IMG/VR virus record: IMGVR_UViG_3300028559_000023
Location: 12,922-76,921 of that record
Direction: 5' to 3' (one strand)
DNA from: a virus
Lineage: Duplodnaviria > Heunggongvirae > Uroviricota > Caudoviricetes
DNA length: 64,000 nucleotides
The stretch's first letter is position 1, and each line of letters begins with the position of its first letter. The notes under the pieces were generated by a model. It was not told the DNA's origin, did not search any database, and saw nothing but the letters and a program-made list of their open reading frames with translations. Position numbers and translations under genes: made by a program. Shown here one piece after another: positions 684 through 64,000 of this stretch.

Positions 684-741
684 GTTTGTGCCCGTGAGGT
701 TGGCTTATGCCTTCTTTCACGGGCTTTTTAATGAGGATAAC

Positions 742-8404: not shown

Positions 8405-8998
8405 ATGTATGGCATTTATGATGGTACGCGAGTAATCGCAAAATTTGTGGCGCCTCTTAGCATCATCAGTAATGTACCTGTTGCCATCACACAATCTGCA
8501 AGCCTCAAGATTCATGCTCAACGTTACTCAACTCAAAGATGGGAGATTTCAGCTAACCTGGAACCTCTCAGCTTTGGGGCTGAGTACCTCATGGCGCTGT
8601 TAGTAGCTAATGGCCACTTTAATCCAATTGATGTAGTCGTGCCTCAGAATTACGGCGTGATTAATCGTAGGACTTCTGTGTCCATTTCTACAGCAGCGAC
8701 TGGATCTATAGGCGAGTCAGATGTTGATGTGGTTGGCAATAGCGGTTTGATACCGCTGGGTACATTCATAAAGTTCGGTAACCATAATAAGGTTTATATG
8801 GTTACAAACGACCGTGTTGGTGATGGGCCTATGGGGATTTACCCCACCCTGAGAACTGCGGTCACAGGTATTTCTTTCAAGCACCGAGATGATGTTATCG
8901 CAAAGTTCATGATGGACAGTGATACAGCTATCGGTATGAGCTACACTGATGGCGTACTGATGGATATTGGTACGATTAAATTACTAGAGGATTTATGA
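8405..8998 (+). CDS. minor tail protein (distal tail / tip component, by position)
   Basis: 197-aa ORF starting 2 nt after the tape-measure stop. Sits between the tape-measure and central-fibre genes. Confidence 0.45.
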   Translation: MYGIYDGTRVIAKFVAPLSIISNVPVAITQSASLKIHAQRYSTQRWEISANLEPLSFGAEYLMALLVANGHFNPIDVVVPQNYGVINRRTSVSISTAATGSIGESDVDVVGNSGLIPLGTFIKFGNHNKVYMVTNDRVGDGPMGIYPTLRTAVTGISFKHRDDVIAKFMMDSDTAIGMSYTDGVLMDIGTIKLLEDL

Positions 8999-9561
8999 TT
9001 GAATTTTCTGAGGCTATTCAAGTTTTGCTGGCAGGGCGTTCCTCTGAAGCTTTCTATCTCGTCAAAATCGGCAATAGCTTCAGAACCAGTCATAGCAGCA
9101 ATGTAACTGTTGGTTCTGACACGTATATTGCTGACGGTTCCATTCTAGAAGTCACTCCGGCGGAATTCTCTTCCGTTACAGATAAACAAGAATTCAGTGT
9201 TGCAGTAGCGGACGTAGACAATTTCTTGTCTGACAAGATTACAGCGGGTATCATTGGTCTAAAGGTTGAAGCCCGAATAGGCTTTATAAATCCTGCCACA
9301 GGTGTTGCTTTCACAAGCTACGCTGATACGTTCTTCTTGTACCGGAGTGCTGTTGATAGGGTTGAATTACAAATCGCTACGGGTAGTAGAGGCAAACGCA
9401 ATTTCGTAATTGTTTGCACTAGTCCTCTACATGATCTTGACCAAATAAGGGCTGTTTACACAAGCCAAGACTACGCTAATAGTGTGTTGCCTGGCGACAC
9501 ATCTTATAGCCAAGTCTATCAAGGATCCGGTCAAATAAATCTAAAGTGGGGTAAACTATAA
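8995..9561 (+). CDS. minor tail protein (tip assembly, by position)
   Basis: 188 aa. ATGA overlap with the upstream gene and with the downstream fibre gene. Confidence 0.45.
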   Translation: MIEFSEAIQVLLAGRSSEAFYLVKIGNSFRTSHSSNVTVGSDTYIADGSILEVTPAEFSSVTDKQEFSVAVADVDNFLSDKITAGIIGLKVEARIGFINPATGVAFTSYADTFFLYRSAVDRVELQIATGSRGKRNFVIVCTSPLHDLDQIRAVYTSQDYANSVLPGDTSYSQVYQGSGQINLKWGKL

Positions 9562-12500: not shown

Positions 12501-15500
12501 GTTGCAACAAAAGGCTCGGCCACACTCACCCGACGTTTCAGTGTAAGCAAACTCAAGACAGCGGCTTCTTCATCCTACGCACTTATCACCGTATATGCTG
12601 AGCGTCCTGTACAACCTTTAGCACCTACTGGCGGTAAATACACAGCGGCCACTGATACCTTTGTGTCGCCTGACGGTTGGTCTAGAACGCTCCCTGCTCT
12701 GAGCTTTGCGCCTATCTGGGGATCTTCTTTTGCATTCGTGTCACCTGATGCTTCCGTTGAACTGGATGGCGGTCCTTGGTCTACCCCGGTGCTCATTGCA
12801 AGTCCCGTAGTGAACGGTCGACGCACTGCCGTACTACAACTATACAAGTGGTCGTCAACACCTCCGACTACTTACCCGGTAGGTACCTCTACTTACAACT
12901 GGCAAACAGGCTTATTTACAGACCCTTCCTTCAACTCAAACGGCTGGACCACCACGCCTGGAACGCCTTCTCCTGGCATGTCACTTTACGTGGTCAGGCA
13001 GATATACACCAACATCGATACGTCTACTGAGAGTGTGGTTACTTGGAGTGCGACAACTTATTCAGTTCTGTCTCAAAGCGGGCTGGATGGTAGCAATGCG
13101 ATAGCTCTTAAGTTAAACGTCAACGCAAATTTGTTTAAGTTTGACAAAGACGGGCTCGGCTCTCCGATATCCCAAACCTTAACCTTCAATACTGTACTGT
13201 CGAACATCTCTGGTACACCCACCCTTGTATGCACACGTTACAACGCGTCAGGAGGATCTCTTGGTACAGTCGCACTAGGTGGTTCCGGATTATCAAGAAC
13301 GTTGACAATAGCGCAATTCGGCACTGCAGCATATGCTGTTATCACCTCCACACTCAGCGGGTACAGTGATCAGATTACTGTTTACAGAAGCGCTGATGGA
13401 GCTACTGGTAGCGCAGCGGTCGTAGGCTATCTGACAAATGAGAGCCACACGGTTCCTGCCGACTCTGGCGGCGTTGTGTCTGCGGGTAATCTCGCTGCCG
13501 CAGCAGGTGCTTTTAAGGTATCCTTTGGTACCACTGATGTAACCAGCAGCAGCACTTTCTCTAAGTTCAGTCAATCTGGACTTGTGGGTAGTATTGACGC
13601 AGCGGGTAACTACACTATCAGCAGCATGTCCGCCGACACAGGTTATATGGTCCTCAGAGCCGTATATAATGGGGTTACGATTGAGAAGACTTTCAATGTC
13701 TCTAAGGCTCGTCAAGGCGCAGCGGGTGAATCAGCTACAGAAAACTTGTATGCGGTGCTGTCCAACGAGAACCACACATTCACGGCGTCTGCAGATGGTA
13801 CAGTAAGTAACTATGGTGGTAGCGGTACAACCATACGCGTGTTTGAGGGCGTTACTGAGCTTACATATGACGGTGTTGGTACTTCAAATGGTACTTACTT
13901 CATCGGTATGGCACCCTCGGGTGTCACGTTAGGTACGCTGTCGGCAAACGGCGATTCAGCGGACATGAGCGCGGTGTCTGCGTTCGTTGCTTCTTCTGGC
14001 TCAATCGTATACACGATTGTTGGTAAGCTTCTTGACGGTACTCCTTTTAACTTAACAAAACAACAAAATTTCTCGAAGGCTTTAGCTGGTGTTGGAGGTG
14101 CTGCAGGTTCTGCTTTCTGGTTGACAAGGTCAGCAGCTTCCATTAGGAAGTCTATTAGCGGCGTGTTGACGCCTAGCGCTCTGACATTCAACGCAATTCA
14201 GTCGAGTGGCTCAACACCGTCTCCTTACTCTGGTCGTTTCAGAATAAGTGTCGACACAGGCGCAGGGTATACTGAGAGCTACGCAAGCATTGTCAATGAG
14301 ACCACAACAAACTTCACGATACCCTCCAACTGTATAAGCCTAAAGGTCGAGTTATTCAGTGATGCTGCCTTTACAAATTTAGTTGATTACGAGATAACCC
14401 CAGTAGTGCTAGACGGGCCTAAGGGCGATTCAGGGATAAGCGCGATACTAAGCAACGAGAGTCATTCTGTGCCATCCGATGCGCAGGGGAATGTTCTGTC
14501 TTATGCTAACTCAGGTACACTGATTTATGTGTATGACGGATCTACTGCTCTTGATTTCGATCAGGCTGGCGCAAGCGCAGGGACCGCTGGTAAGTGGGGC
14601 TTCACGACGACTGTTTCAAACATAGGTTCACCAACCGTTTCAGACGTGGGTTTTCCGGCTTCTGTGGCCGATCTCTCAGGTATGACTTCGGACAGTGCGG
14701 CAATTACCTACAACATATTCGGAAAGAGCCTGGCGGGTAATTCGTTTGCACTCACAAAGACACAAAGTATAACAAAGTCGAAGCAGGGACCCCAAAGCTC
14801 CTCTTTCTGGGTGTCATCGTCAGCGGCTGTAATTCAGAAAAGTAACACATCTGTTTTGAATCCATCTAGCGTTAGATTCTCTGGCTTCAAGAGCACTCAG
14901 GGATTGCCTGAGACTTACGCGGCAAGATTCATAATCCAGACGTCTACAGACGGTACTAACTACACCACTCAGTACACTTCAGGGGCGGATGAGACCTTCA
15001 AAGACTATAGTATTTCCGCCAATGTCAAGTCAGTTAAGGTATCGATGTATGCGGCCGGCGGTGTGAGTACCTTGTTGGATAGTCAGACTGTGCCAGTTGT
15101 ACAAGATGGCGCAACAGGTCCCAATGGCTTAAGATACGGTGCAATGACAATGTACCGTTGGTTGCTTAATAAACCTACAACCTTTCCATCAGGAAATTCT
15201 ACCTATACGTGGGCCTCAGGCGTATTTACCGTTCCGTCAATAACTAACGGCTGGTCGATAACACCGCCTGCAGCTGTGCTTGGCAGTACTCTGTGGGCAA
15301 CTACAGTTACCTTTACTGACTCCGGCTCATCGGCTACTTCAGCCATCACCTGGGCCGTCACTGACTGCTTTGCAGTGTCGTACGCAGGTACCAACGGTTC
15401 CAACGGTACGAGTAGTGCCAGAATTGACATCTTCAGAAGGTCACCGACAGATAACCCGTCAGCTCCTAATGCAACGGCGTCTTATGACTTTGTTTCAGGT

Positions 15501-17690
15501 GTTTTAAACAATCTGACTAATGGGTGGTCCACGACTTGGCCTACGGGAATTGATCCTGTGTATGTTCGTAGTGTTTCTGTTACAGGATCAGGTACAGTAA
15601 ACATACTACCTGCCAACTGGAGCTCTGCTGTTAAGATTGTTGAAAACGGCCTTAACGGTTCTAATGGTTTCAACACAGCGACCATATTCGTATTCAAGCG
15701 AACCACTCTTAACAACCCACCTCCTCCCCCAGGCACAGTAGTCTACGAATTTGCAACAAAGCAAGTTGTGTCTGGCGACTTAGACGGGTGGACGACAAGC
15801 TTACCCACTACAGGTGGTCCTTATAGATGGATGTGTGTAGCAACGGCCAACAGTACGTCAGCTACAGACCAAATTCTGAATGCTGAGTGGTCGGCACCTG
15901 CTCTGGTCAGTCAGGATGGTGTTAATGGCGTCAACGGTACCAAAACGATAACGCTTTCGGTCTACAGATGGCTATCTTTCCAACCCACTACTAACTCTCC
16001 CTACGGCACATACTCTTGGACAAACAACACCGTAACCTTCATCGACGCGCAGGGTTGGACTTTCTATGTACCTACTAATCCCGGTACTCCTGGTATAAGT
16101 CTTTGGCAATTGACCAAGACATTTACGACTGATGCGTCAGACAACGTAACCTCTGTAAGCTGGGCAGGTGTCACACCGGTTGCTGTAAGCGCCAACGGTA
16201 CAAATGGCACAGCGGGTGTGAATGGCTTTCAAAGTACGGAAGTGGTTGTTCATAGGTGGGATGGAAGTACGCCTGCTATATCAGGTACATCTACATACAA
16301 CTGGAGCACCGCGTCTTTCAATGTCAGCCCTAATGGTTGGTTTCCGAATCCAGGTGCTGGAGTTCCCGGCCTCAACTTGTATACTGCAAGAGTGAGAGTC
16401 ACTGATAGCGCAACTGCAAACACTACCAACTTCAACTGGGACGGCGCTACTATAACCGTCACCGGATATAAAGCCGTAGACGGTGCGACTGGCCCTCAGG
16501 GTCCACAGGGGCCGCTAGGACCACAAGGCTCACAAGGCCCTCAGGGTCCACAAGGCCCACAGGGAAGCCAGGGTAATACAGGTCAAACAGGTATTAGTGC
16601 AAGACGAGCCTATACAATATCGATTGCTGACACACTGAGCACACCTGGAGCTACGACTGGGATAAACTCAGTTCCTGCAGGCTACTCTTCGATTGCTGGT
16701 GTACCGACTCCAAATACAAACGAGAAGCTTTTTCAGAGCGATGGTCTTTACAATCCGGCCACTGATATTGTCACTTGGGGTACTCCGTACATCAGTAGTC
16801 TACGTGTCGGCTCTTTGTCCGCCATAACTGTTAATACAGGTGGCCTTAGTGTGACAGGCAATCTAACAATGAGTAGCAGCGGTATGATAAACGCTGGTTC
16901 ATTTGTTGGTTGGTCTTGGCCTACTAGTGGTAGAGGGTTTCATTTAGGGCCTGAAGGTATACTGCTTGGTAGACCTAATAGTGGCGCTTACATGCAGATA
17001 ACTGCTGACGGTAATCTGTATGCACCTGCATTCAGTATCGTCAATGGCGCGGCCACGTTTAGCGGTACACTAAGCGGCGCAAATGGTACTTTCTCAGGAA
17101 CAATCAGCGCAAGCACTATCACAGGTAGTACTATCACTGGTGGCCTGATACGTACTGCTGATAGCGGTAAACGCATAGCTCTTAACGAAGGCGGTTCCAA
17201 CGACCTGGTCTTCTACTCCAACCTACCAGGCTCGCTGCAAATAGTCGCCAGAATCGGTGACAACTACGACAATGGCGATTTCTTAGGCTATAGTATTGGC
17301 AGATTCGGCTTTGTTTCTAGCTCAATAAACGGCGTCTACGGATTGTCAGGTTCTGGTAGCGGCGGCGTATTCTCTTCAGCTACAGGTACCGGTGTTTTTG
17401 GCTTTAGTGATACAGGGTACGCGGCGCTCTTCAGGACTGGAGCCTCTAAGACCAACGGGCAGATCATACTACTTGGTTACAACGACATGACCACCTTTCA
17501 AGATCTGATACCTAATGTCGTTGTTTCAGGCCCCTCTCCAAGAGCGCTAGCATTGGGAGTAGGACCTAACGGTTCGCTACGAATTGCTGATCATAACAGC
17601 ATCGGGACAGTGCTGGATACTTCCCATGTAACTGTTTCAGCGTCGGCGCCCAGCGGCGGTAACGACGGCGACATCTGGATTCAAACATGA
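9561..17690 (+). CDS. central tail fibre / host-specificity protein (J-like), giant, with collagen-like and repeated beta-rich modules
   Basis: 2709 aa, Ser/Thr/Gly/Asn/Val-rich. A collagen-like GPQGPQGPLGPQGSQGPQGPQGPQGSQGNTGQTG run lies at nt 16483-16592. At least six copies of a Y(R/K)W..P(T/S)T.P.G(T/N)STY.W..G.F...GW...P module occur between 12.8 and 16.4 kb. Three copies of an LSNE(S/N)H(T/S)(V/F)...G.V...SG module lie at about 13.43, 13.76 and 14.45 kb. The C-terminus is Gly/Ser/Thr-rich and fibre-tip-like. Confidence 0.8.
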   Translation: MFWLVVQIAIAAGSIAYQQSQARKQRKKAAEQEEARKGFEIVVEGETTPLVLPYGRVKVGGARVWHNVANSYKYVANNSDKVFLAGSPDVPPGTYEEYFANEGGAYTQTTSYGAIPGSSLTKDIAGSKNEFLFFQQALCVGPINRVYDVIIDGDRDIDDPSLGSTAVTTSGGKIVTKTTSFKAALRIDVHNGVAPVADTLTVANFPERATARFPNAAYASVFAKLNRDDPQFNGVFDVQFIMEGLILPKVVGGVLGTPEYSTSPAYALLHYLLSPFGKNLLPEDIDLSSFESVHNRSYRTVVPSAKVGGKIWRPTDGYRNVGTRALPRYETNLAIKTSDKIRDNITKLLSCLGPTATLPYIQGKYRLVFQDPDTNAGIVVAGTITDDDIVDESDINISWPGGDDRFNYATVRFNNAELDFREDSVSWPPKRTGTYFYGVDGNLYPIVDGWDDTKAGGQKLNKYAVWTGSSNSASFAWKFVAINSGVHTVYFTAGGSCSVVAKGVSSTHNNINTVKNFAISANKDEVISISGSATCTADLKGFAAYVVDSVGVTVWTSRSPAYTDFVTYTQSDAIYQQLLAEDNGVELEASITADGIDNVYHALARAEETVRSSRSAVQIELKYRVREKYYTPGDYLLINSDILGVYNKYFRVETSRMTDAVSAELALVGFDAAQLAWNVPDNVYEKPKSLFDFKLVAPYSVSFTKSSNVLTSSAGTVSWASANDSRNTGFIVYVNVSGDYDSNGLPLFREVGRTVDNSYELPAIKEKAGRVAVRAYSGSAMSEMIESGPILFNTRDLQLTSSEIGFIRNKANEYVPGEILITAAYSGYDNPSVKWFEDTAEITVVGNVLTLAPFTTGSFKKFKVYVEELGDSSTRIEKELTLFSIEEGKDTTSMMLTQEIAILPANYAGAVSDYSTGTTTLTLMEGSNNVTAGWTITRTSSSSVASTIAGNSAYNHSVTGQPSVVFQVTALTEDSGYIDIVATKGSATLTRRFSVSKLKTAASSSYALITVYAERPVQPLAPTGGKYTAATDTFVSPDGWSRTLPALSFAPIWGSSFAFVSPDASVELDGGPWSTPVLIASPVVNGRRTAVLQLYKWSSTPPTTYPVGTSTYNWQTGLFTDPSFNSNGWTTTPGTPSPGMSLYVVRQIYTNIDTSTESVVTWSATTYSVLSQSGLDGSNAIALKLNVNANLFKFDKDGLGSPISQTLTFNTVLSNISGTPTLVCTRYNASGGSLGTVALGGSGLSRTLTIAQFGTAAYAVITSTLSGYSDQITVYRSADGATGSAAVVGYLTNESHTVPADSGGVVSAGNLAAAAGAFKVSFGTTDVTSSSTFSKFSQSGLVGSIDAAGNYTISSMSADTGYMVLRAVYNGVTIEKTFNVSKARQGAAGESATENLYAVLSNENHTFTASADGTVSNYGGSGTTIRVFEGVTELTYDGVGTSNGTYFIGMAPSGVTLGTLSANGDSADMSAVSAFVASSGSIVYTIVGKLLDGTPFNLTKQQNFSKALAGVGGAAGSAFWLTRSAASIRKSISGVLTPSALTFNAIQSSGSTPSPYSGRFRISVDTGAGYTESYASIVNETTTNFTIPSNCISLKVELFSDAAFTNLVDYEITPVVLDGPKGDSGISAILSNESHSVPSDAQGNVLSYANSGTLIYVYDGSTALDFDQAGASAGTAGKWGFTTTVSNIGSPTVSDVGFPASVADLSGMTSDSAAITYNIFGKSLAGNSFALTKTQSITKSKQGPQSSSFWVSSSAAVIQKSNTSVLNPSSVRFSGFKSTQGLPETYAARFIIQTSTDGTNYTTQYTSGADETFKDYSISANVKSVKVSMYAAGGVSTLLDSQTVPVVQDGATGPNGLRYGAMTMYRWLLNKPTTFPSGNSTYTWASGVFTVPSITNGWSITPPAAVLGSTLWATTVTFTDSGSSATSAITWAVTDCFAVSYAGTNGSNGTSSARIDIFRRSPTDNPSAPNATASYDFVSGVLNNLTNGWSTTWPTGIDPVYVRSVSVTGSGTVNILPANWSSAVKIVENGLNGSNGFNTATIFVFKRTTLNNPPPPPGTVVYEFATKQVVSGDLDGWTTSLPTTGGPYRWMCVATANSTSATDQILNAEWSAPALVSQDGVNGVNGTKTITLSVYRWLSFQPTTNSPYGTYSWTNNTVTFIDAQGWTFYVPTNPGTPGISLWQLTKTFTTDASDNVTSVSWAGVTPVAVSANGTNGTAGVNGFQSTEVVVHRWDGSTPAISGTSTYNWSTASFNVSPNGWFPNPGAGVPGLNLYTARVRVTDSATANTTNFNWDGATITVTGYKAVDGATGPQGPQGPLGPQGSQGPQGPQGPQGSQGNTGQTGISARRAYTISIADTLSTPGATTGINSVPAGYSSIAGVPTPNTNEKLFQSDGLYNPATDIVTWGTPYISSLRVGSLSAITVNTGGLSVTGNLTMSSSGMINAGSFVGWSWPTSGRGFHLGPEGILLGRPNSGAYMQITADGNLYAPAFSIVNGAATFSGTLSGANGTFSGTISASTITGSTITGGLIRTADSGKRIALNEGGSNDLVFYSNLPGSLQIVARIGDNYDNGDFLGYSIGRFGFVSSSINGVYGLSGSGSGGVFSSATGTGVFGFSDTGYAALFRTGASKTNGQIILLGYNDMTTFQDLIPNVVVSGPSPRALALGVGPNGSLRIADHNSIGTVLDTSHVTVSASAPSGGNDGDIWIQT

Positions 17691-18454: not shown

Positions 18455-18985
18455 ATGTTACCTATCGTTGCAAGCCTTTTGTCGAACGGCCTGAGCCTCC
18501 TGGGCAACGCAGTTTTGGCTAAAGGGAAAGATTGGGTTGAAGCGAAAACCGGTGTGGATCTTACGAGGGAGTCTCTGAGTCAAGAGGATCTGACCAAGCT
18601 CCGTATTGCCGAGATGGAACACGAAGAAGAGCTTCTACGAATCAAACAGAATGACGACCGGATCAGTCTGGAGTTTGAGCGGATGAAGCTGGACAATGTA
18701 AAAGATGCCAGGTCTATGCAGGTCACGGCTCTGTCTCAGAATGACTGGCTGGCCAAGAACTTTGTGTATCTTTTCATTGCCATCTGGTCAGTGGCCGCGA
18801 TGGTGTTCATCGGCGCAATAACATTTGGCGATGTCCCTGAAAATAACCAGCGCTTTGCTGATACCATTCTAGGCTTTGTGCTAGCCACTGTCCTTGGTGG
18901 TATTTTCCAATACTTACTCGGGACTACGCCGCAGTCTAAGGCAAAAGACAGCACTATCCAGAATCTTGCGGAGAAAGCATTATGA
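18455..18985 (+). CDS. membrane protein, putative holin or lysis-associated membrane protein
   Basis: 176 aa. It has an N-terminal hydrophobic segment, a charged central region and two C-terminal transmembrane-like segments (NFVYLFIAIWSVAAMVFIGAITFG; LGFVLATVLGGIFQYLLG). The stop overlaps the next start as ATGA. Confidence 0.4.
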   Translation: MLPIVASLLSNGLSLLGNAVLAKGKDWVEAKTGVDLTRESLSQEDLTKLRIAEMEHEEELLRIKQNDDRISLEFERMKLDNVKDARSMQVTALSQNDWLAKNFVYLFIAIWSVAAMVFIGAITFGDVPENNQRFADTILGFVLATVLGGIFQYLLGTTPQSKAKDSTIQNLAEKAL

Positions 18986-19308
18986 GCTTAGGTAAGGAAC
19001 AAGAAGCCTTCAGTCGTCACCTTGCGCTTCTCCTCATGGAGGCGTTTAATCGTGGCTATGAAGTGCGCATGGGTGAAGTGCAGAGAATGCCTGAAATGCA
19101 GCAGATTTACTTTAAAACAGGTAGATCCAAAACACTGAATAGCGCTCACTTGTCAAAGCTGGCTGCCGATCTCCATTTCACTAAAGCTGGTGTGCTCTGC
19201 TACCCAGATGAGCTTGGTAGATATTGGGAGTCGCTAGACCCTAAAAATCAGGCAGGCATGTTCTGGAAAACGTTCAAGGACTCTCCACACTTCGAGCGGA
19301 AAATTTGA
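18982..19308 (+). CDS. putative endolysin, M15-like metallopeptidase
   Basis: 108 aa. The ...NSAHLSKLAADLHF... and C-terminal ...DSPHFE motifs resemble the His/Asp zinc ligands of M15 / VanY-type cell-wall peptidases. Sits immediately after the putative holin. Confidence 0.45.
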   Translation: MSLGKEQEAFSRHLALLLMEAFNRGYEVRMGEVQRMPEMQQIYFKTGRSKTLNSAHLSKLAADLHFTKAGVLCYPDELGRYWESLDPKNQAGMFWKTFKDSPHFERKI

Positions 19309-25756: not shown

Positions 25757-28009
25757 ATGTCAGTAAAACTAACTAAATCGATAATTGTAGCATCCATAAC
25801 TAATCGACTTGCCAACGAAATAGCACCACAGAACCCTGTGTCTTTTTTACTAAAGCACACTGTGGATGACTACTACTCAGAACTCATAAGTACGCTGTAC
25901 CTGTACACAAGGCCCAAAAAGGGTGCCAAGTCGCAGAACATTTACTTCTCAGAGCTTATATCAGCTTTAGGCCACACAATACGCTCCAAACTAGGCCATC
26001 GTAAAGACTCGGCTGTTGCTGCAAAAACCGGAGCGTTTCTGTTGTATACGTTCCAGACCTTGGGCGTTCTAGAGTTGGTGGTCGTTGCAGGAAAATCACA
26101 TGCAACTTATGCAATAGTTGTTAAAGATGAAGAAGCAATTGCTGCAATATGGAGCACACTGTCTTTTGAAAAGGTTAGAAAGCTCCCCACACTTTCAAAG
26201 CCTTCAGATTGGGTCGGTACTAGACATCCTTCCGGTGTCATGATCGTGAAGACAGGTAGCTCAGAGGTGCTCAAGTCCTTGAGCCCTTCCAATCAGCCAA
26301 TGGTGTTTGAGTCTCTCAACAGATCACAACGTATCGGTTGGAATGTAAATAGCGAGTTGCTCACTGTTGCAGCCTGGGCCTTGAAGAATCGTACTGACGC
26401 TTTTGCGGATATCTGGGAGCAGGTCAACCCAGAAGCCAGGGCCACAAAAGTCAGAGAAGCAAAAGCTATCACTGACATGGGCAAACGGCTACTCAACAAA
26501 ACTTTTTACCATGTCTATTACTACGACTTTCGTGGTCGTAAGTACCCATCATCAGCCTATCTACACGAGCAAGGTTCTGACTTATCAAAAGGCCTATTGT
26601 TGCGAGCCGAAAGGAAACCGATAGGTGCAAGAGGCTATTGGTGGTTAATGGTCACTATCGCGTCGGAGTGGGCGGGTGATGCAGATAGATCTGACGGTCT
26701 TAAGACTGACAAGATACCTCTACAAAACCGATTTGAGTGGGCTGAGCGTCATGAAGATCTTTTGCTGTCTTATGCTGAAGCGCCGAAGATAAACACTGGA
26801 TGGATGTCTGCAGAAAATCCATGGAGATTCCTGGCTGGCTGTATTGAGCTTAAAAATCTACGAGTGTGGCAGTTCAACAACAACGATTTCAACAGCTACG
26901 GCTATCAATCTGGGTACTTGGGTTTCATAGACGGATCCAACAATGGTTGCCAACACCTTGCTGCTCTTACGCGAGACGAGGTTACGGCCGTACATGTGAA
27001 CCTTGTCAAACAGGAATACCCCGGTGATTTGTATCGTTATGTGGCTTCAAGCGTGTGGGAGAGCGTCAACGCTGAAGTGTCAAGGCTGCCAGCTGATGTA
27101 GTTGCACGCGCAGACGCTTTTATTGATGACCTGATGACTCTTAAACGCGAGATATCGGCGAAAGAATTCTCTGACGAGACAAGAGCGCCACTGGTAAACG
27201 CTCTGTTAGCGCTTAAGAACTCCAATCCTGATATCGATGTTATTACACCACAAGTCTTCTGGCGTCGCGTAGATAGCGCCAAAGAGAGGCGCAAGATTGT
27301 CAAACGAAACGTGATGACACTACCGTACGGAGGTACGCCATACGGTCTTGGAGAGCAGCAGATAAGTGACGCAAAGAAACATGGCATTGCGCTTCTGCTT
27401 CATATGCAACATCGATGGGCTGCTTTTATGGGGCGTCGTGTGTACGAAGACTGCAAGGTTTCTCTTAAGCGCCCTATGCAGCTTCTTAGCCTGTTTGAAG
27501 ACGCAGGCAGAAAGGCCGAGGAAGAAGGTCGCTTTCTTAGCTGGGTGGTCCCTATAACAAAGTTTCCCGTAGTTCAGAATTACACATCTGGAAAGATAAA
27601 GAAGATCTATGTGCAGTACGGTCCTCCAGTCGGTGCCAGAAAGAGTACTGGTTACTATGAGAACACACTGCAGATAAATATTTGTTTTATCGAAGATGTC
27701 GAGCCAACTAAGGGTAAACAAATTCAAGGCGCCAGTCCTAATGCAATCCACTCTCTAGACGCTGCTCATGTTGCCATAACCGTGTGCAATACTGACGCAG
27801 ATATCACTACTATCCACGACAGCTTTGGCGCTCTCCTTTCAGATATGGATGAGCTTTTTGTGTCTGTTAGAAAGTCATTTGTACAACTCTACAATGTAAA
27901 CCCTCTTAAGCAACTATTTGATGACATCGGCGCTGACATGTCAAATGTTTCATTTGGAAACTTGGACGTCTCAGCTATACTTGAATCTGAATACGCATTT
28001 AGCCCATGA
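25757..28009 (+). CDS. single-subunit DNA-directed RNA polymerase (T7-like), compact 750-aa form
   Basis: Carries ...IDGSNNGCQHLAALTRD... (compare T7 DGSCSGIQHFSAMLRD), ...HSLDAAHV... and ...IHDSFGALL... (T7 HDSFGT). Confidence 0.85.
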   Translation: MSVKLTKSIIVASITNRLANEIAPQNPVSFLLKHTVDDYYSELISTLYLYTRPKKGAKSQNIYFSELISALGHTIRSKLGHRKDSAVAAKTGAFLLYTFQTLGVLELVVVAGKSHATYAIVVKDEEAIAAIWSTLSFEKVRKLPTLSKPSDWVGTRHPSGVMIVKTGSSEVLKSLSPSNQPMVFESLNRSQRIGWNVNSELLTVAAWALKNRTDAFADIWEQVNPEARATKVREAKAITDMGKRLLNKTFYHVYYYDFRGRKYPSSAYLHEQGSDLSKGLLLRAERKPIGARGYWWLMVTIASEWAGDADRSDGLKTDKIPLQNRFEWAERHEDLLLSYAEAPKINTGWMSAENPWRFLAGCIELKNLRVWQFNNNDFNSYGYQSGYLGFIDGSNNGCQHLAALTRDEVTAVHVNLVKQEYPGDLYRYVASSVWESVNAEVSRLPADVVARADAFIDDLMTLKREISAKEFSDETRAPLVNALLALKNSNPDIDVITPQVFWRRVDSAKERRKIVKRNVMTLPYGGTPYGLGEQQISDAKKHGIALLLHMQHRWAAFMGRRVYEDCKVSLKRPMQLLSLFEDAGRKAEEEGRFLSWVVPITKFPVVQNYTSGKIKKIYVQYGPPVGARKSTGYYENTLQINICFIEDVEPTKGKQIQGASPNAIHSLDAAHVAITVCNTDADITTIHDSFGALLSDMDELFVSVRKSFVQLYNVNPLKQLFDDIGADMSNVSFGNLDVSAILESEYAFSP

Positions 28010-53169: not shown

Positions 53170-53964
53170 ATGCGCACTTACATCAAGTGGTTCTCCATCG
53201 CAGTTCTTTCTATCTTCGCCGTTGTGGCGTTATTCAGCAGTTTCTTTGTAACGCAGCCTGGTACTGTCACACTGCTGACTCGCCTCGGTAGTGTCTCCGA
53301 GCGTGTTTATCAAGAGGGCCCTCATCTCAAGTTTCCATTTATTGAGAAGGCGAACGCGTTGATTGTGCAGCCCCGTACATATGACGCACAGAATGTTGAC
53401 GCCGGCACCAAGGACCTCCAAAGCGTCAATGTTAAGCTTGCAATCGTCTACAAAGTGGAAGAGACTGCAGCAATTGAAGTCTTCCGTAACTATCGAGACG
53501 TGGACACGCTGGCCTGGCGAATTCTGAACCCTGCTGTAGAAGAAGTTTTTAAGGCTGTTGCGGCTAACCACAGTGCCGAAGAGCTTATCACCAAGCGAAC
53601 TAGCGTTCGCGACAGCGTGGTCAAGAGCCTCCGGGCTAAGGTGAAAGATCACAACATCTCAATTCTTGATGTGAATGTGGTTAATTTCCGTTTTGCACCA
53701 TCCTTCGCAGCATCGGTTGACGAAAAGGTAGTTGCCGAACAACGTGCTCTTAAGGCCCGTCACGAGCTGGATCGGATCAAGACTGAAGGCGAGTCTCGTG
53801 TCGCTGCTGCTAACGCTGAGGCGGCTGCAACTCGTGTGATTGCTGAGGCTGTCAAAAGCCAAGGCGGTGCCGAATACGTTCAACTCAAGTGGATTGAGAA
53901 GTGGAATGGTGCATTGCCTACCCACAATCTCGGTAATTCACAAACCATGCTTGGGCTCAAGTAA
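53170..53964 (+). CDS. SPFH / band-7 (prohibitin-HflC-like) membrane protein
   Basis: N-terminal transmembrane segment. The SPFH core reads ...VTQPGTVTLLTRLGSVSERVYQEGPHLKFPFIEKANALIVQPRTYDAQNVDAGTKDLQSVNVKLAIVYKV... A C-terminal Ala/Glu-rich coiled coil follows. Confidence 0.7.
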   Translation: MRTYIKWFSIAVLSIFAVVALFSSFFVTQPGTVTLLTRLGSVSERVYQEGPHLKFPFIEKANALIVQPRTYDAQNVDAGTKDLQSVNVKLAIVYKVEETAAIEVFRNYRDVDTLAWRILNPAVEEVFKAVAANHSAEELITKRTSVRDSVVKSLRAKVKDHNISILDVNVVNFRFAPSFAASVDEKVVAEQRALKARHELDRIKTEGESRVAAANAEAAATRVIAEAVKSQGGAEYVQLKWIEKWNGALPTHNLGNSQTMLGLK

Positions 53965-57839: not shown

Positions 57840-58088
57840 GTCATATCGACGACATTATATTAAAGAATGTACATTGTTGATGTCATGTTCAATGTCGATA
57901 AAATACTTTTGTTTATTATTGTTGTTTTGTTATAAAGATCAATAACTCTCTATAATAGTTGTTATTAGTTCTAAATACATAGATAATGAACTTACGTAAG
58001 CGTTGAGATTGCAATTTGAGTAATGTGCTTTCGAGATATATTCCGAGAATGACTTTCGAGGTGGCGCTAAGCCGATGATTTTGTTGAG
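57840..58088. other. AT-rich non-coding region with short TTGTT-type iterated motifs; candidate packaging (pac/cos) site or other late control region
   Basis: About 250 nt with no credible ORF, strongly AT-rich relative to the window. Contains TTTGTTTATTATTGTTGTTTTGTTAT and TATAATAGTTGTTATTAGTT. Lies immediately upstream of the small terminase gene. Confidence 0.4.
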
Positions 58089-58091
58089 GTG

Positions 58092-58574
58092 ATGAACGTG
58101 GATTTAGACTACATCGTGGACGATAAACAGCCTAGTGGTCGTGGAGAACGTGGTGTTTCTACATACGTTCGTGGTGCTCAGAGATCTGTGTCCCGGTTAA
58201 AACAACTACGTTTTGACCCCATTGAGAAGCTCGTCGGTCAATACACTAGACTGGAAGAAGAGATTACTCACTACAAACAGATTCGTGCTGGCACTAGGAT
58301 CGAACTGCTAGGTAATGGTAAGCCGAGAACCTTTAGTTATGAGGTTCTTATGAAAATGGAAGAACAACTTCAAGGTATAGCTAAGGAGCTCTTGAGGTAT
58401 GGGTATGGTCGTGTCCCTGAAAACGAGGATCCGAATGCTCACAAACAGAAGTCCGGAGGTCTTGTGGTTAAGTTACATAAACAGGGTGATGTGTACACTG
58501 CAGGCGGCCCTACTGAAGACGACCCGGATGACTTTGAAGAATCTGGATTTGGGTACATAGAAAATGGACAATGA
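58092..58574 (+). CDS. terS: terminase small subunit (by position)
   Basis: ATG at 58092 with GAGGTG upstream; the track starts at a GTG at 58089. 160 aa, charged. Overlaps the large terminase start. Confidence 0.5.
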   Translation: MNVDLDYIVDDKQPSGRGERGVSTYVRGAQRSVSRLKQLRFDPIEKLVGQYTRLEEEITHYKQIRAGTRIELLGNGKPRTFSYEVLMKMEEQLQGIAKELLRYGYGRVPENEDPNAHKQKSGGLVVKLHKQGDVYTAGGPTEDDPDDFEESGFGYIENGQ

Positions 58575-59925
58575 AGTGTCTTTGCACTGGGGTCAATCCC
58601 AGGTATACGAAGATTTAATCGTTAATCAAACATGCCGCTACCCTGTCGTGGATTGCTCTCGTGGATGGGGTAAGTCGTATCTAGCCGCGACTATCGGCTC
58701 TACAGCTGTATACGAGTTACTCGATCTGCCTTTTTGGGTTCCTAACAAAATTGTGTGGATCATAGCCCCAACATATGATCAAGTAACAGACATTTACTAC
58801 CCGTTGTTAGCCTATGACATGGGTCTTGAAGCCGAAGCTCTTAAATCATCGCGCGATTTAGGCAGATTTTGGTTTCGTAACAATGTGGAGCTTAGACTGC
58901 TGTCATACGAAGCCGTTGAACGTATGCGTGGTAAAGGTGCATACCTAGTTATCTGGGATGAGGTGTCCTCATGCAAGAAGGGTATCAAGCCTAAAGACGC
59001 TTGGAACTCGGTTATCAAACCGTGTATCGTCACTCGATGGTCCAAGCGACACGCCAAACGTTACGGTGCAAGACGCCCTGGAAGTGCACTTTTCATAAGC
59101 ACTCCTAAGGGCTACAACTTCTTTTACGACCTTTTCAACTACCAAGAAACGGATAAGGAATGGAAGTCTTACATGTTCGATCACACTACGAGTCCCTTGC
59201 TGGACCCTGAGGAAATCGAGCGTAATAGAGCCATTATGGATCCCATTGAGTTTGCGTCGGAGTATCTGGCCTCCTTCAAAGACTCTGGTAATAGCGTTTT
59301 CTACTGTTTCGATAGATCTGTGCATCTACGAGACGACTTGCCTTATTTTCTACCACCCTACGGAGACCAGCTCGGCGAAGATGTGCACTTGAATATTGAC
59401 TTTAACGTCGGATTACAGTGTACTTCGGCCTTCGCTTTGAGAGGTCATCAGATGCACTTTTTGGATGAATTCAAAGGGCATCCCGATACAGAAACTTTGG
59501 CTCAAGTCCTTAAGGAGACATACAAGGGGCATCGAATATTTGCATACCCCGATCCTTCTGGAAGAGCACGTAAGACATCAGCACCTGTTGGTCGTACTGA
59601 CTTCTCCATCTTAGAGTCCTACGGTATCCAATGCCTTGCCAGACCTAAAGCACCGCCTATTGTTGATAGTGTACAGGCGGTTAATCGGCGCTTGAAGTCT
59701 GCTGTAGGTGGTGTGCAGATGTTCTTCTCTAAAACAAGAGTACCTGGCGTAGTGAGATCCATGGAGCGTACCAAATGGGCAGACACTAATTTAGATGTCG
59801 CCGTGATCGATAAGTCCGAGGGTGTAGAACATTTCTCAGACGGTATTAGATATGGTACCGAGTGGCACTTCCCTGTTGAGCAAGGTACTAAAGTGGTAGG
59901 CAGAAATGTAAATGGCAGATTCTGA
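58564..59925 (+). CDS. terL: terminase large subunit
   Basis: Walker A variant VVDCSRGWGKSYLAA. Walker B AYLVIWDEVS. ATPase motif C ISTPKG. Nuclease-domain motifs AYPDPSGRA and DGIRYG. Confidence 0.85.
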   Translation: MDNEVSLHWGQSQVYEDLIVNQTCRYPVVDCSRGWGKSYLAATIGSTAVYELLDLPFWVPNKIVWIIAPTYDQVTDIYYPLLAYDMGLEAEALKSSRDLGRFWFRNNVELRLLSYEAVERMRGKGAYLVIWDEVSSCKKGIKPKDAWNSVIKPCIVTRWSKRHAKRYGARRPGSALFISTPKGYNFFYDLFNYQETDKEWKSYMFDHTTSPLLDPEEIERNRAIMDPIEFASEYLASFKDSGNSVFYCFDRSVHLRDDLPYFLPPYGDQLGEDVHLNIDFNVGLQCTSAFALRGHQMHFLDEFKGHPDTETLAQVLKETYKGHRIFAYPDPSGRARKTSAPVGRTDFSILESYGIQCLARPKAPPIVDSVQAVNRRLKSAVGGVQMFFSKTRVPGVVRSMERTKWADTNLDVAVIDKSEGVEHFSDGIRYGTEWHFPVEQGTKVVGRNVNGRF

Positions 59926-60202
59926 AAATGAAGCACAAATTCTTTCAGCAAAGGAATTCACAGTACTCGACAGTCACATAAGAACGGTTGTCAGAGATGC
60001 TGTACAAGAGGCTATTAGAGGTCATATTCTGACACCTGAGGAGTCTCAATTCGTGAAATTAGCACTTAAGCGTGAAGCTCGTAGGGAAGCCTTCCAGACT
60101 GCAATAATCGAAAAGAGTCTGATAGGCCTCGTCTTTATGGTTTTTACGTTCTTAGGTTTAACAATATTCGAGTGGGCTGTCAAGCACGGCTTTAAACCTT
60201 AG
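59912..60202 (+). CDS. hypothetical protein with a C-terminal transmembrane segment
   Basis: 96 aa. Overlaps the terL stop. C-terminal segment LIGLVFMVFTFLGLTIFEW. Confidence 0.5.
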   Translation: MADSENEAQILSAKEFTVLDSHIRTVVRDAVQEAIRGHILTPEESQFVKLALKREARREAFQTAIIEKSLIGLVFMVFTFLGLTIFEWAVKHGFKP

Positions 60203-60210
60203 GAATATAC

Positions 60211-62163
60211 ATGTATACAGCAAAAGAACTCGAAATGCGAGCCGCGCCGTCAAACTGGACTGTTGAGAATAACAGCGGCTTGACAATTACCGCATACAAT
60301 AGTGTTACTAAAGAGCGTTTCGTCGGTTCTGCAGAAGACTTCAAGAACCTTTTCAACAAGACCGGTGCTGGTGGTGTTGAGGTTGTCTACGCAGCCGATG
60401 GAAAGTTTGCAGGCTTTCGTAATGCAGATGGTAGTGAGATTGATCTTCGTGGTCTTACCGAAACAGGTGGCCCTGAGAGCGACCCTGAGATTATCAGGAA
60501 GTACAGCGTTGCAGATCCTTCTGTTTTTGATCGGGTTACCACCGATGAGCAGTCTGCAGGTTTCCTACAAAAAGCCACTCTCGGCCCTACCTACGCAGAG
60601 ATTTCGGCTTTGACAACGTTAGGCTCTAAGCGTGCTTGGATGCTTGCAGAGATGGCTAAGCCCTTATCCAAGACGTTCGCCTCACGCTGCTGGGTGGATC
60701 AAGCCTTGACGGATACTGCGGTGTTTGACAAAAGCATTGAGACCGAGCGCGCCTGGCTTACTGGTTATATGCAAGAACCGGCCCTTCGCATGAAGTGCCT
60801 GCATGTTCTTAACAAGCTTTTCGTCATTACGATCGCTGGTACTTTCCAAGATCCGGGTCGTTGGGCTGCTTGGATGTCTTGGCTTGACCGCATCAACAAC
60901 CATGTGTTCGGTAACTGGCGTGATCTTATTGAAAGCATCACCTATTCGCCACACATGAGCCTGATGTTGACGTACTACGCGAACAAAAAGGCCTCTGGGG
61001 AGCGACAGCCTGACGAGAACTACGCTCGTGAGATCATGCAGCTTTTCAGTATTGGTCTTGTTCAGTTGAACATGGACGGTTCTTTGAAGCTGGACGCTGC
61101 AGGTAATCCCATTCCCACGTATTCTAACGACGACATACGACAAGTTGCTCGCTGCTTGACCGGGATGACGCGGTGGAATTTCGCTCCTCCGTACGAACGC
61201 TATGATCTGAAGACTGCTTCCGGAGATACTCGTTTCAATGGTGCGATCGGTACTGGTGACTACGACGACATGATGGCTGACCCTGAAGTCAGACTTAAGC
61301 ACTATCTGCCTGAGTATGAATACGGTCCTAAGCGTGCTTTAGGTGGTCTGCTCGATGTACCTGAGAACACTGAGCCAGAAGCTTGTTTGACGATGTTGCA
61401 TGACGCTCTGTTTAATCACCCTAACACAGCGCCTTTCTTTGCTATTCGCATGATTCAGAGCATGGTTACCAGTAACCCTTCTCCTGGCTACATCTCACGT
61501 GTGGCTCACGCATTCGCAGATAATGGTAAGGGTGTCAGGGGTGACATGAAGGCTGTTTGGATGGCTATCCTGACAGACCCTGAGGCCAGTAGCGACGGAC
61601 GCTATAACAAGGGCTTTGGTCGAGTTCGTGATGGATTTGACGTGTTCGCCAATCACATCCGTTCGTTCGGGCGTATTGGTAGCACTGGCTTTGTGGCTAT
61701 CGCATCGGATGGTTTCTCTGGCACGTACGTAGGGGATTTCGGCCCAACCGCTTTCCGTACACAACCTAGTATTTTCAGCGCCTACGATCCATTGTATGTG
61801 CCGCCTGAACTGGAGGTCTCTAACGGACTTGCCCCTGAAATGCAGATGTGGTCTGAGGTCTTGTTACTGCGTTGCATGAACCGCCTTTTGGTGCTGATTA
61901 ATGCGGGTAAACCTAGTGATACCGCTGGTGCCAACGTCATGAAGAGTGACTATTCTATGCTGCCTCTCACAGGTACTCCTGACGAGCTTGTGCAGCGTGT
62001 CAATCTCTTAATGTGCGGCGGTAAAATGTCGGCAGGCCTTAGAGCAGATCTTGTTGCGAATGCAGTGGCTATCGGTAGCGGTACGACAGCGCTTCAAGAG
62101 GCTCGTGCAACAGGTTGCCTGTTGATCACCTCTAACTCGCCGGACTACTTCGTACAACTGTAA
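60211..62163 (+). CDS. DUF1800-family protein
   Basis: Hallmark ...PDENYAREIMQLFSIG...QVARCLTGMT (DUF1800 signature NENYAREL.EL.TLG ... AR.fTGW). The typical C-terminal ...HPNTAPFFAIRMIQSMV... region is present. Ends ...SNSPDYFVQL. 650 aa with no signal peptide. RBS AGGAA upstream. Confidence 0.65.
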   Translation: MYTAKELEMRAAPSNWTVENNSGLTITAYNSVTKERFVGSAEDFKNLFNKTGAGGVEVVYAADGKFAGFRNADGSEIDLRGLTETGGPESDPEIIRKYSVADPSVFDRVTTDEQSAGFLQKATLGPTYAEISALTTLGSKRAWMLAEMAKPLSKTFASRCWVDQALTDTAVFDKSIETERAWLTGYMQEPALRMKCLHVLNKLFVITIAGTFQDPGRWAAWMSWLDRINNHVFGNWRDLIESITYSPHMSLMLTYYANKKASGERQPDENYAREIMQLFSIGLVQLNMDGSLKLDAAGNPIPTYSNDDIRQVARCLTGMTRWNFAPPYERYDLKTASGDTRFNGAIGTGDYDDMMADPEVRLKHYLPEYEYGPKRALGGLLDVPENTEPEACLTMLHDALFNHPNTAPFFAIRMIQSMVTSNPSPGYISRVAHAFADNGKGVRGDMKAVWMAILTDPEASSDGRYNKGFGRVRDGFDVFANHIRSFGRIGSTGFVAIASDGFSGTYVGDFGPTAFRTQPSIFSAYDPLYVPPELEVSNGLAPEMQMWSEVLLLRCMNRLLVLINAGKPSDTAGANVMKSDYSMLPLTGTPDELVQRVNLLMCGGKMSAGLRADLVANAVAIGSGTTALQEARATGCLLITSNSPDYFVQL

Positions 62164-62171
62164 GGATTTTT

Positions 62172-64000
62172 ATGGCTAAACCAATAAGTTACAGAAGCCC
62201 TGAGGCTGTAGCTGCTGTGGAAGCAGAGACAGGCAGGACAGGTAACGATTACAGAGCCCTTGTGTGCGTTTTCTTGTTTGGTGGCAATGACTCCCATAAC
62301 ATGATCATCCCGCGTGATGGCTCGGCTAATCGTATTCATTACGATTTACAACGTGGTACTCTGGCAATTACTGCAGGTACTGAGCTCCCATTAACGGCAG
62401 AGTGGGGCGTGCACCCCAGCATGACCAATGTGAAATCCATCTTCGATGCCGGTAAGCTTGGCGTCTTGATGAATGTTGGTTTGTTGGCTCAACCGACAAC
62501 GCGTGCGCAGTATAAGGCTAATACTGTCACATTGCCTACTCAGCTCTACGCTCACAACAGCCAACAAGCTCTCTGGCAAGCCCTTCCGATCCTGGCAAAG
62601 AATCCTGTCAACGGTTATATGGGGCGTGCTGATGATTTGGTTGGCGAGTTCTTCAACTTCAGCGCTGTTGATGATATCGGTGGCCAATTCTCGATCGCTG
62701 GTCGTCCACTTCAGATGCAAGGCTACGAGAGCCGCTCTAATGACTTGAATACCAGCGGACCTACATCCGCAACCGCTAGCGCAACCAACGCTCCCGGTAC
62801 TTACCTCACACCTGCCAGAACGCGTCAAGTTTGGGACAACGAGCGCCAGGCCTTATTTGCAGGTGCGGTTGGTTCTTCGGTAAAGAAACAAGCAGCTATC
62901 ACAACTAACCTCCAAGCCTTACCTGCTCCGGTTACTACTACCTTTACAGGTTTGAGTACTGCTTACGGTAACCTTGGAGGTCAACTTGCAATGGTTGCTC
63001 GTGTTCTGTTGAGCCGCTCCAATATGGGCCATAGAAGGGATACTTTCTTCGTATCAATCTCAGGATGGGATGATCATGATGGTCTGGCTGCTAACTATGG
63101 TCCTCGTTTGGCAGCTCTCGATGCAGCCTTGGGCGCTTTTTGGGCTGCGCTTGGTCAACTCGGCCTGCAGGAGAACGTCGCTCTCTATACTCAATCTGAT
63201 TTCGGTCGTGCCCTTAAGCAAAACAACGATGGGTCTGACCACGGTTGGGGTGGACATGCACTTGTGATGGGAGGCTCTGTTCTCGGCGGTCAGCTCTTCG
63301 GAACACCGCCTGACTTTGCTACCAATTCTGTGAATGACGCAGATCAAGGTCGTCTTATCCCGACCACAAGCGCGGATCAGTACGTAGCCACGATGTTGAA
63401 GTGGTGGGGTGTACCTGAGAGTCAGATGGAGCTTGTTCTACCCAATTTGGCCAACTTCAGCCAAAAGACGCTGCCGATGCTTCGTGAGCCATTGCCGGTT
63501 GTTACACAACCTAAGGCTTACTCTATTGACCTTGTTTCGCAAGTGCTCAATACAGGTGCTTTTGGTGACGACGTTTCGTTTACTCTGCCCTATACCGCTG
63601 TAACCACACAGTTCGACAGAGAGGGTAATCTCATAGCGTCTCCCGTAAACGTGATCCCGAATAGTGAGTTCTTCGGTGGTGAAGCTCTTGTTGGACAATC
63701 GTCGCCTCCTTTGGGCAACCATTGGCTCGACTGGAATACGACGCCAGGTAACGCAGGCCTTAAATTCACGCTGAACGAAATTGGCGTTGAGAACGGCATG
63801 CGGTATACTGAATGGAATCTCAGTGGTACTGTGACTGTCACTGCGGCATATAGCCAGATTGCTTTTGGCGCGTTTGCAACGGTTCCCACAGCAATCGTGG
63901 CCGCTAACGGGCAATCGTACACCTTCTTCTTGAAAGCTCGGCGTATTCTGAGCAAGAGCCCGAACCCAGTTTCTTGGGGCTGCAACCTTCGCGCCACTAC
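62172..64000 (+). CDS. DUF1501-family protein (sulfatase / alkaline-phosphatase-like fold) with a long C-terminal extension; 3' end outside the window
   Basis: Open frame from the ATG at 62172 (AAGGA 5 nt upstream) to the window end. It is absent from the ORF track because no stop lies in the window. N-terminal LVCVFLFGGNDSHNMIIP and later GSDHGWGGHALVMGGSVLGGQLFG match DUF1501 hallmarks. There is no TAT or Sec signal. At least 200 further residues follow the DUF1501 core. Confidence 0.65.
   Translation, partial: MAKPISYRSPEAVAAVEAETGRTGNDYRALVCVFLFGGNDSHNMIIPRDGSANRIHYDLQRGTLAITAGTELPLTAEWGVHPSMTNVKSIFDAGKLGVLMNVGLLAQPTTRAQYKANTVTLPTQLYAHNSQQALWQALPILAKNPVNGYMGRADDLVGEFFNFSAVDDIGGQFSIAGRPLQMQGYESRSNDLNTSGPTSATASATNAPGTYLTPARTRQVWDNERQALFAGAVGSSVKKQAAITTNLQALPAPVTTTFTGLSTAYGNLGGQLAMVARVLLSRSNMGHRRDTFFVSISGWDDHDGLAANYGPRLAALDAALGAFWAALGQLGLQENVALYTQSDFGRALKQNNDGSDHGWGGHALVMGGSVLGGQLFGTPPDFATNSVNDADQGRLIPTTSADQYVATMLKWWGVPESQMELVLPNLANFSQKTLPMLREPLPVVTQPKAYSIDLVSQVLNTGAFGDDVSFTLPYTAVTTQFDREGNLIASPVNVIPNSEFFGGEALVGQSSPPLGNHWLDWNTTPGNAGLKFTLNEIGVENGMRYTEWNLSGTVTVTAAYSQIAFGAFATVPTAIVAANGQSYTFFLKARRILSKSPNPVSWGCNLRAT

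Follow-up and report, generated by a model that had tools for sequence, protein, structure and literature searches.

A DUF1800–DUF1501 gene pair without export signals recurs among phage virion genes and possibly encodes a glycan-targeted esterase complex

DUF1800 and DUF1501 are large bacterial protein families, with thousands of matches, that have no known function or solved structure. In plant-associated bacteria, the two genes were co-transferred with a chitin-synthase-like polysaccharide locus, and the DUF1501 protein carries a twin-arginine translocation (Tat) motif (PMC5122149). In bacteria of the Planctomycetes–Verrucomicrobia–Chlamydiae (PVC) group, DUF1501 is found beside PSCyt/PSD1 partners, which sometimes bear Laminin_G_3 or F5/8-type-C domains (PMC3542564), and another paper merely lists both families near type VI secretion genes. 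Here, we analysed a DUF1800–DUF1501 gene pair at the 3' end of a 64,000-nucleotide (nt) stretch of viral DNA (Caudoviricetes; IMG/VR record IMGVR_UViG_3300028559_000023, positions 12,922 to 76,921), hereafter called the window, which represents a large part of a siphophage genome. The first-pass annotation of this DNA had known of no description of the pair in a phage late operon, and a literature text search agreed, since no paper describing the pair in phages or in a phage late operon was retrieved. One paper naming DUF1501 in a phage was set aside as irrelevant because the name refers to a weak CDD match on a protein of 61 amino acids (aa). The pair is a phage-adapted variant of a known, uncharacterised bacterial module, and a recurrent phage feature that appears undescribed.

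The pair and its domains occupy the following positions of the window.

60211-62163, plus strand: DUF1800 open reading frame (ORF), 650 aa.
60211-60540, plus strand: N-terminal add-on of the DUF1800 protein (aa 1-110), a small beta domain and a disordered linker.
60562-62163, plus strand: DUF1800 domain proper (aa 118-647), all-alpha, then the last three codons and the stop.
62172 to past the window end, plus strand: DUF1501 ORF, 609 aa of which are visible.
62172-63490, plus strand: DUF1501 catalytic domain (aa 1-440), with an alkaline-phosphatase-superfamily fold and without a Tat signal.
63491-64000, plus strand: start of the C-terminal extension, with the first of three beta-sandwich domains; the extension continues to aa 1089.

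Both family assignments made in the first pass were confirmed by Pfam searches, at a level far beyond chance. The 650-aa ORF matched the DUF1800 profile PF08811 over its full length (E 3e-49, 168.8 bits with a cut-off of 26.1, profile positions 2-418 of 419), and all 40 invariant DUF1800 columns of a 52-sequence alignment were present in the window protein, so that the conserved core (the PDENYARE...QLF.IGL block and the C-terminal SPDY) is kept. The hallmark motifs PDENYAREIMQLFSIGL and SPDYFVQL are present as well. The ORF starting at 62172 matched the DUF1501 profile PF07394 (E 1.4e-28, 100.6 bits with a cut-off of 27, profile positions 2-366 of 390) and contains the hallmark motifs FLFGGNDSHN and SDHGWGGHALVMGG. 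All motifs quoted earlier were thus found. For the all-alpha DUF1800 domain, no fold relative was detected in the PDB.

Tat and lipoprotein signals are typical of DUF1501 and DUF1800, respectively, and are not part of the Pfam definitions. Comparison with homologues upheld the earlier statement that both window proteins lack signal peptides. An RR Tat motif and a hydrophobic stretch upstream of GGxD were present in 108 of 120 DUF1501 homologues and absent in the window protein. Both features are also missing from every phage-locus DUF1501 copy examined, among them those of loci L007, L008, L009 and L012; most of these copies share the alternative start M.KP.SY.dP..v......DY[KR]ALVC. Likewise, bacterial DUF1800 matches begin with a hydrophobic stretch and a lipobox Cys, whereas the window protein has no lipobox and bears its N-terminal add-on where the bacterial homologues have the lipoprotein signal. 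The ~30 closest DUF1800 matches were also without a lipobox and carry instead N-terminal stretches of ~45-170 aa that differ by lineage. In a neighbour-joining tree built without bootstrap, the signal-less DUF1800s cluster apart from the bacterial lipoprotein forms, and three divergent IMG/VR copies lie near the base of the bacterial side.

Homologues in other phage genomes had been suggested as a check, and at least 13 phage loci were found to carry the pair. The genomic context was fetched for 13 loci, and the neighbours were identified except at L019 and L025. DUF1800 precedes DUF1501 in all 13 loci, with gaps of -4 to 39 nt, and the pair nearly always lies in or beside head, tail or packaging genes, as follows (terL, large terminase subunit).

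Window and L004: pair between terL and the portal gene.
L030: pair between the portal and MuF genes, with a Phage_holin_2 gene directly after the pair.
L008: pair downstream of portal, protease and capsid genes and upstream of a Gly_rich_2 gene and tail genes.
L012: pair between the capsid and head-tail connector genes of a Mu-like head.
L009 and L022: pair directly 5' of the terminase gene.
L013: pair probably directly 5' of the terminase gene, a placement judged only from ORF size and sequence.
L014: pair downstream of the terL, portal and capsid genes and of a gene for a decoration- or fibre-like protein.
L020: capsid gene 5' of the pair; on the 3' side, a protein that weakly matches minor-tail proteins (E 1e-6).
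L007 and the P0003 contig: pair four genes past a Peptidase_M15_3 endolysin, and also past GpJ and DUF4376.
L029: weak CHAP match three genes 3' of the pair.

The mutual identity among the phage-locus copies was 25-77%, with many unrelated lineages represented, and the pairwise identities of DUF1800 and DUF1501 co-varied (r = 0.90 over 78 comparisons). The closest copy, in a second siphophage lineage (L007 and the P0003 contig, 75.9 kb), is 71-77% identical and lies in a tail and lysis region, and its DUF1800 protein bears a different, helical N-terminal module. The presence of so similar a copy at a different genome place and with a different N-terminal module indicates that the cassette moved between phages fairly recently. 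Taken together, the 13 loci with the same gene order, the joint divergence of the two proteins, the separate grouping of the DUF1800s and the lost signals indicate that the pair is a signal-less, phage-adapted form that moves as an intact unit among virion-gene blocks, and not a one-off host capture. The earlier alternative of a captured host module is therefore misleading if taken as a recent event; recent capture from a host was dropped as an explanation, because the signal-less DUF1800s group apart and the nearest bacterial matches are only ~36% identical.

The pair is rare, with 16 loci in IMG/VR and, in BFVD, one DUF1501 protein from an uncultured phage. Neither megablast with window positions 58000-64000 nor tblastn with the two proteins gave a usable match among 50,697 GenBank phages, indicating that neither this phage nor the pair is represented there. 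In IMG/VR and GTDB genomes, single-sequence scans revealed no close relative, and hence no prophage that would point to a host.

The variable N-terminal modules of the DUF1800 proteins were compared with neighbouring genes. At L008, the first 100-120 aa of the DUF1800 protein are homologous to the N-termini of three neighbour genes (E 4e-18, 1e-8 and 3.8e-6). Four adjacent genes at L008 6824-16412, encoding a 372-aa protein, the 694-aa DUF1800 protein, the 404-aa Gly_rich_2 protein and a 529-aa protein, have in common this ~100-aa N-terminal module, followed by different C-terminal parts. Such a pattern is typical of proteins sharing a virion attachment module, and judging from their sequences the four gene products look like appendages using one attachment domain. 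In the window protein, the AlphaFold2 model of the add-on has strands at aa 16-70 (predicted local distance difference test, pLDDT, ~70-79) and low confidence at aa 80-95. Stand-alone homologues of this add-on (aa 1-110), 52-150 aa long, are found in metagenomes (P0288, P0291 and P0292). In addition, the motif 'PSNW...G(I/L)...N..T...F.GS..(D/E)F' occurs both at window 60247-60354, in the DUF1800 N-terminus, and at L004 15525-15629, in the C-terminus of a 120-aa protein encoded downstream of the pair. The match between the add-on and the 120-aa protein is weak (pairwise E 0.001, but 0.6 against the genome). No further 'PSNW' repeat was found in the window, and the 120-aa protein gave the sole weak match.

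The core of the DUF1501 protein has the alpha/beta fold of the alkaline-phosphatase superfamily, nearest to nucleotide pyrophosphatase/phosphodiesterase (NPP)-type phosphodiesterases, sulfatases and phosphoethanolamine transferases, and also to alkaline phosphatases, which places it in the phospho- and sulfo-ester branch of the superfamily. PDB sequence searches with the single proteins and with the DUF1501 profile gave no match. The putative metal-site residues D40, N43, N101, H128, D300, H302, D356 and H357 are kept in the window protein, as are the other family-invariant residues Q131, W135, R346 and N351. T110, a candidate nucleophile, is also kept, at a position where 117 of 124 sequences have Thr or Ser. 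In contrast, the near-invariant S127, the other candidate nucleophile, is lost. Position 127 (codon 62550-62552) is Ser in 121 of 124 homologues ('LFSH') and Ala ('LYAH') in the window, L007 and L012; all three non-Ser sequences are thus phage copies, and the remaining phage copies keep Ser.

The sequence beyond the window end was read from metagenomic contigs of the same phage (JGI and Logan assemblies), including L004; the exact 650-aa DUF1800 protein was present on 22 metagenomic contigs, the longest of ~76.9 kb. On these contigs the full DUF1501 protein is 1089 aa, and its gene runs ~1.4 kb past the window. The first-pass annotation had noted a beta-rich C-terminal extension of more than 200 aa; its beta-rich character is real, but its length is ~650 aa. 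The extension consists of three concanavalin A (ConA)-like lectin domains, a type known from tail fibres, tailspikes and carbohydrate-binding modules (CBMs), and its distal lectin or jelly-roll domains resemble those of known fibres. The last two domains have 43 sequence homologues without a DUF1501 domain, many of them on phage-size contigs, and Pfam contains no family matching the extension or these stand-alone homologues. Furthermore, the extension matches gp49, a 'tail protein' of Azospirillum phage Cd that sits in the tail module of that phage, as well as tail-fibre and minor-tail proteins in BFVD. The lectin-bearing long form was confined to one sub-group, whose members share 49% or more identity with the window copy (the window, L007, L008, L009, L013 and the P0003 contig).

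The first-pass suggestion of a virion-associated enzyme pair is the best-supported reading of these data, and we tentatively favour a phospho- or sulfo-esterase complex that is targeted to glycans, expressed late and probably carried by the virion. The DUF1800 and DUF1501 proteins would associate into a complex, synthesised late in the cytoplasm and then mounted on the virion, with the variable DUF1800 N-terminal module as the adaptor. The lectin domains would bind a host surface glycan, from which the metallo-enzyme domain would cleave or remove a phosphate- or sulfate-ester substituent. The result may be help for adsorption or for passage through capsule or lipopolysaccharide (LPS), as provided by tailspike esterases and depolymerases. 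A narrower version, in which a virion-borne two-subunit metallo-esterase of a kind undescribed for phages docks via the tail-fibre-type lectin domains and strips phosphate- or sulfate-ester groups to expose or pass a receptor, is possible but doubtful.

Several points weigh against an esterase complex on the virion. We infer the DUF1800–DUF1501 interaction from gene linkage only, and late operons are a common landing place for unrelated cargo genes. Neither the PHROG families nor the GenBank phages contain a homologue of the pair, so nothing can be transferred from a studied phage. If Ser127 is the nucleophile, the window, L007 and L012 copies would not be hydrolases. The distant phage DUF1501 copies are short (414-463 aa), and 8 of the 13 loci have no lectin domains; some phage DUF1800 add-ons are only ~46 aa long. 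Moreover, a small membrane protein, in one case a holin, lies beside the pair in 5 of the 13 loci, which fits a periplasmic or lysis role.

Upstream of the pair, the gene run at the 3' end of the window contains three further ORFs.

58089-58574, plus strand: candidate small terminase subunit gene (terS), 161 aa, by position only; 11-nt overlap with the terL start.
58564-59925, plus strand: terL, 453 aa (PHROG_2, E 1.3e-25).
59912-60202, plus strand: 96-aa ORF, its product soluble in the N-terminal part and ending in a single transmembrane helix (aa 69-90).

The pair had been described as packed on the same strand behind terS-terL. The strand, the order and terL itself were verified, whereas terS is a positional assignment, and the 161-aa ORF matched nothing in Pfam, PHROG or NCBIfam. 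Similarly, the tight packing on one strand after terL was borne out (gaps of -14, 8 and 8 nt along terL, the 96-aa ORF, DUF1800 and DUF1501), but the pair does not follow terL directly, as the previously unmentioned 96-aa ORF intervenes. This ORF overlaps the terL stop by 14 nt and has a Kyte-Doolittle 19-residue maximum of 2.06. It has no family match in Pfam, PHROGs, NCBIfam or PADLOC, and the DUF1800 and DUF1501 proteins have none in PHROGs, NCBIfam or PADLOC; thus, nothing ties any of the three to a defence or anti-defence system. No terminator-like site was found on the plus strand in the gene run, and the sole cluster of promoter-like sites lies at 57877-57987, just 5' of the 161-aa ORF. 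At L014, a 93-aa protein of the same architecture as the 96-aa ORF is encoded directly 5' of DUF1800, with 26% identity that is not significant (E 0.046). A conserved third gene of the module was considered and dropped, because the small ORFs beside the pair share no homology from one locus to the next.

Reading the downstream sequence for a portal, as the first pass had advised, revealed a 120-aa gene after DUF1501 and then a 525-aa portal (PF13264; PHROG_145, E 3.5e-60), which lies two genes downstream of the pair and outside the window. The run is thus ordered terS-terL-96aa-DUF1800-DUF1501-120aa-portal, with the pair inserted between terL and a normal portal; it is not a stand-in at the place where a portal had been expected. 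That expectation is weak for this lineage, since in the closest GenBank relatives (EBPR siphovirus 1 and DSS3_PM1) the gene after terL is not a portal and in DSS3_PM1 it is phoH. The nearest GenBank relatives of terL are those of EBPR siphovirus 1 (57% identity) and of DSS3_PM1 and DSS3_VP1 (54-55%), two roseophages of the Naomviridae with deoxyuridine-substituted DNA.

Elsewhere in the window, the following genes were identified.

688-8403: tape measure protein, 2571 aa, unusually long.
8405-8998: distal tail protein.
9561-17690: giant tail protein, 2709 aa, J-like by position and size, with PHROG matches of tail-fibre type only.
18982-19308: endolysin-like gene.
25757-28009: T7-like RNA polymerase.

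A DNA polymerase, a primase-helicase, a ribonucleotide reductase and a ligase are also encoded, and the nucleotide-metabolism genes lie at 25-43 kb. Near aa 2300, the giant tail protein contains a segment of tail-fibre or collagen-like type. Positions 53170-53964, within the block of small early or middle genes that precedes the terminase, encode a 264-aa membrane protein of the Band_7/SPFH family, according to a Pfam mark on the contig annotation.

The main alternative to the virion-borne complex, though rather unlikely, is a soluble late complex that accumulates in the cytoplasm and reaches the periplasm, the site of action of its bacterial relatives, only upon holin opening or lysis. There it would help to break down or modify a polymer of the envelope, or, once released, act on neighbouring cells. 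In that case the missing export signals would have the same explanation as in canonical endolysins, and the bacterial homologues are indeed exported, as judged by the Tat motif in 108 of 120 sequences and the lipobox signals. The holin gene directly after the pair at L030, the weak CHAP match three genes downstream at L029 and the endolysin four genes before the pair at L007 and P0003 point in the same direction, as do the small single-pass membrane proteins encoded beside the pair in the window, L014, L013 and L007; the lectin domains could serve as the cell-wall-binding domains of endolysins do. However, the endolysin-like gene of the window is 40 kb from the pair, most loci have no lysis gene near it, and the flanking membrane proteins are mutually non-homologous. 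This explanation also leaves the variable N-terminal modules unaccounted for, including the one shared with neighbours at L008.

It is unlikely that the pair is cytoplasmic auxiliary metabolic cargo, that is, a phosphodiesterase or phosphatase freeing phosphate or nucleotides for phage DNA synthesis, with an incidental late-operon site. Such a role is compatible with the absence of export signals and with a fold nearest to nucleotide pyrophosphatase/phosphodiesterases and alkaline phosphatases, and the phosphate-starvation gene phoH follows terL in DSS3_PM1, with a PhoH gene also near the pair on the P0003 contig. However, three tail-fibre-like lectin/CBM-type domains would have no obvious cytoplasmic target, and the bacterial relatives act outside the cytoplasm. 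Moreover, the pair lies nearly always among or beside structural genes and not among nucleotide-metabolism genes, which in the window are found at 25-43 kb.

The sequence past the portal bears on a further possibility. After the portal, a 112-aa gene is followed by a gene for a protein of at least 1561 aa (L004 17547-21953, ~5.5 kb past the window end), in which a MuF head-morphogenesis domain (PHROG_241, 9e-68) is fused to an RNA polymerase domain of the single-subunit type (PF00940, 4e-7; PHROG_414, 1.8e-18). This fusion is a candidate for an encapsidated, ejected virion RNA polymerase, alongside the separate T7-like RNA polymerase at 25757-28009, and a protein of this kind, likely ejected, suggests that the phage probably packages cargo. 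The DUF1800 and DUF1501 proteins could likewise be packaged inside the head and, when infection begins, be ejected into the periplasm along with the DNA, like T7 gp14-16 and the N4 virion RNA polymerase. The position of the pair in the head module between terL and portal, close to the MuF–RNA polymerase gene near the portal, and its position between portal and MuF at L030 are consistent with this idea. We nevertheless consider it very improbable, as neither protein bears a MuF or other known packaging domain, closely related copies sit in a tail and lysis region, and a protein of 1089 aa with three jelly-roll lectin domains at its end has the look of an external binding protein.

Finally, that the 650-aa protein is itself a portal or portal substitute, as only its position after terL and its size would suggest, has virtually no probability and was refuted by its full-length DUF1800 match, by the absence of any PHROG portal match, portal HMM (hidden Markov model) match or portal fold, and by the real portal two genes downstream.

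If the narrower version, a virion-borne two-subunit metallo-esterase, is true, it would provide a first functional handle on a widespread bacterial two-gene module, which would then be a phospho- or sulfo-esterase acting on periplasmic glycans together with an all-alpha partner of a new fold. If virion-borne, the complex would also add a new enzyme class to the receptor-modifying phage enzymes, which are known to include glycosidases, lyases and deacetylases; if not virion-borne, the pair would clearly exemplify how phages re-tool an envelope module. The combination of signal loss, fusion to tail-fibre-type lectin domains and mobility as a unit in virion-gene blocks yields a concrete, testable hypothesis that applies to phages and bacteria alike, namely a glycan-directed phospho- or sulfo-esterase complex that acts on the cell envelope, and the soluble, signal-less phage copies may be the easiest family members to express for biochemistry.

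Compared with described enzymes of the alkaline-phosphatase superfamily, the window DUF1501 protein is only 9-15% identical to NPP/ENPP phosphodiesterases, PafA/PhoK phosphatases, type I sulfatases and the EptA, MCR-1, BcsG and LtaS phospho-transferases. In addition, a DUF1800 partner always accompanies, or is needed by, DUF1501, and none of these known enzymes has such a partner. In contrast to phage tail-fibre, tailspike and baseplate proteins with ConA-like or CBM domains, and to tailspike esterases and depolymerases, the window system comprises two genes and has no evident trimeric beta-helix or coiled-coil shaft. Unlike that of the tailspike esterases and depolymerases, its enzyme class is matched by no PHROG family or GenBank phage in our searches, and its attachment to the virion is putative.

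The PVC DUF1501 modules likewise combine two proteins with lectin-type carbohydrate-binding domains. However, the partner there is PSCyt/PSD1 and not DUF1800, the lectin domain is on the partner and not fused to DUF1501, and signal peptides are present. The bacterial DUF1800/DUF1501 pair, consisting of a lipoprotein and a Tat-exported protein, belongs to the same families, with the same gene order and tight linkage, and is ~35-40% identical to the window pair (Burkholderiales and other bacteria), with nearly all family-invariant residues in common. The window pair differs from it in having neither lipobox nor Tat signal, in the DUF1800 N-terminal add-on, in the 650-aa three-lectin extension, in the change of Ser127 to Ala, and in its site within a phage structural module.

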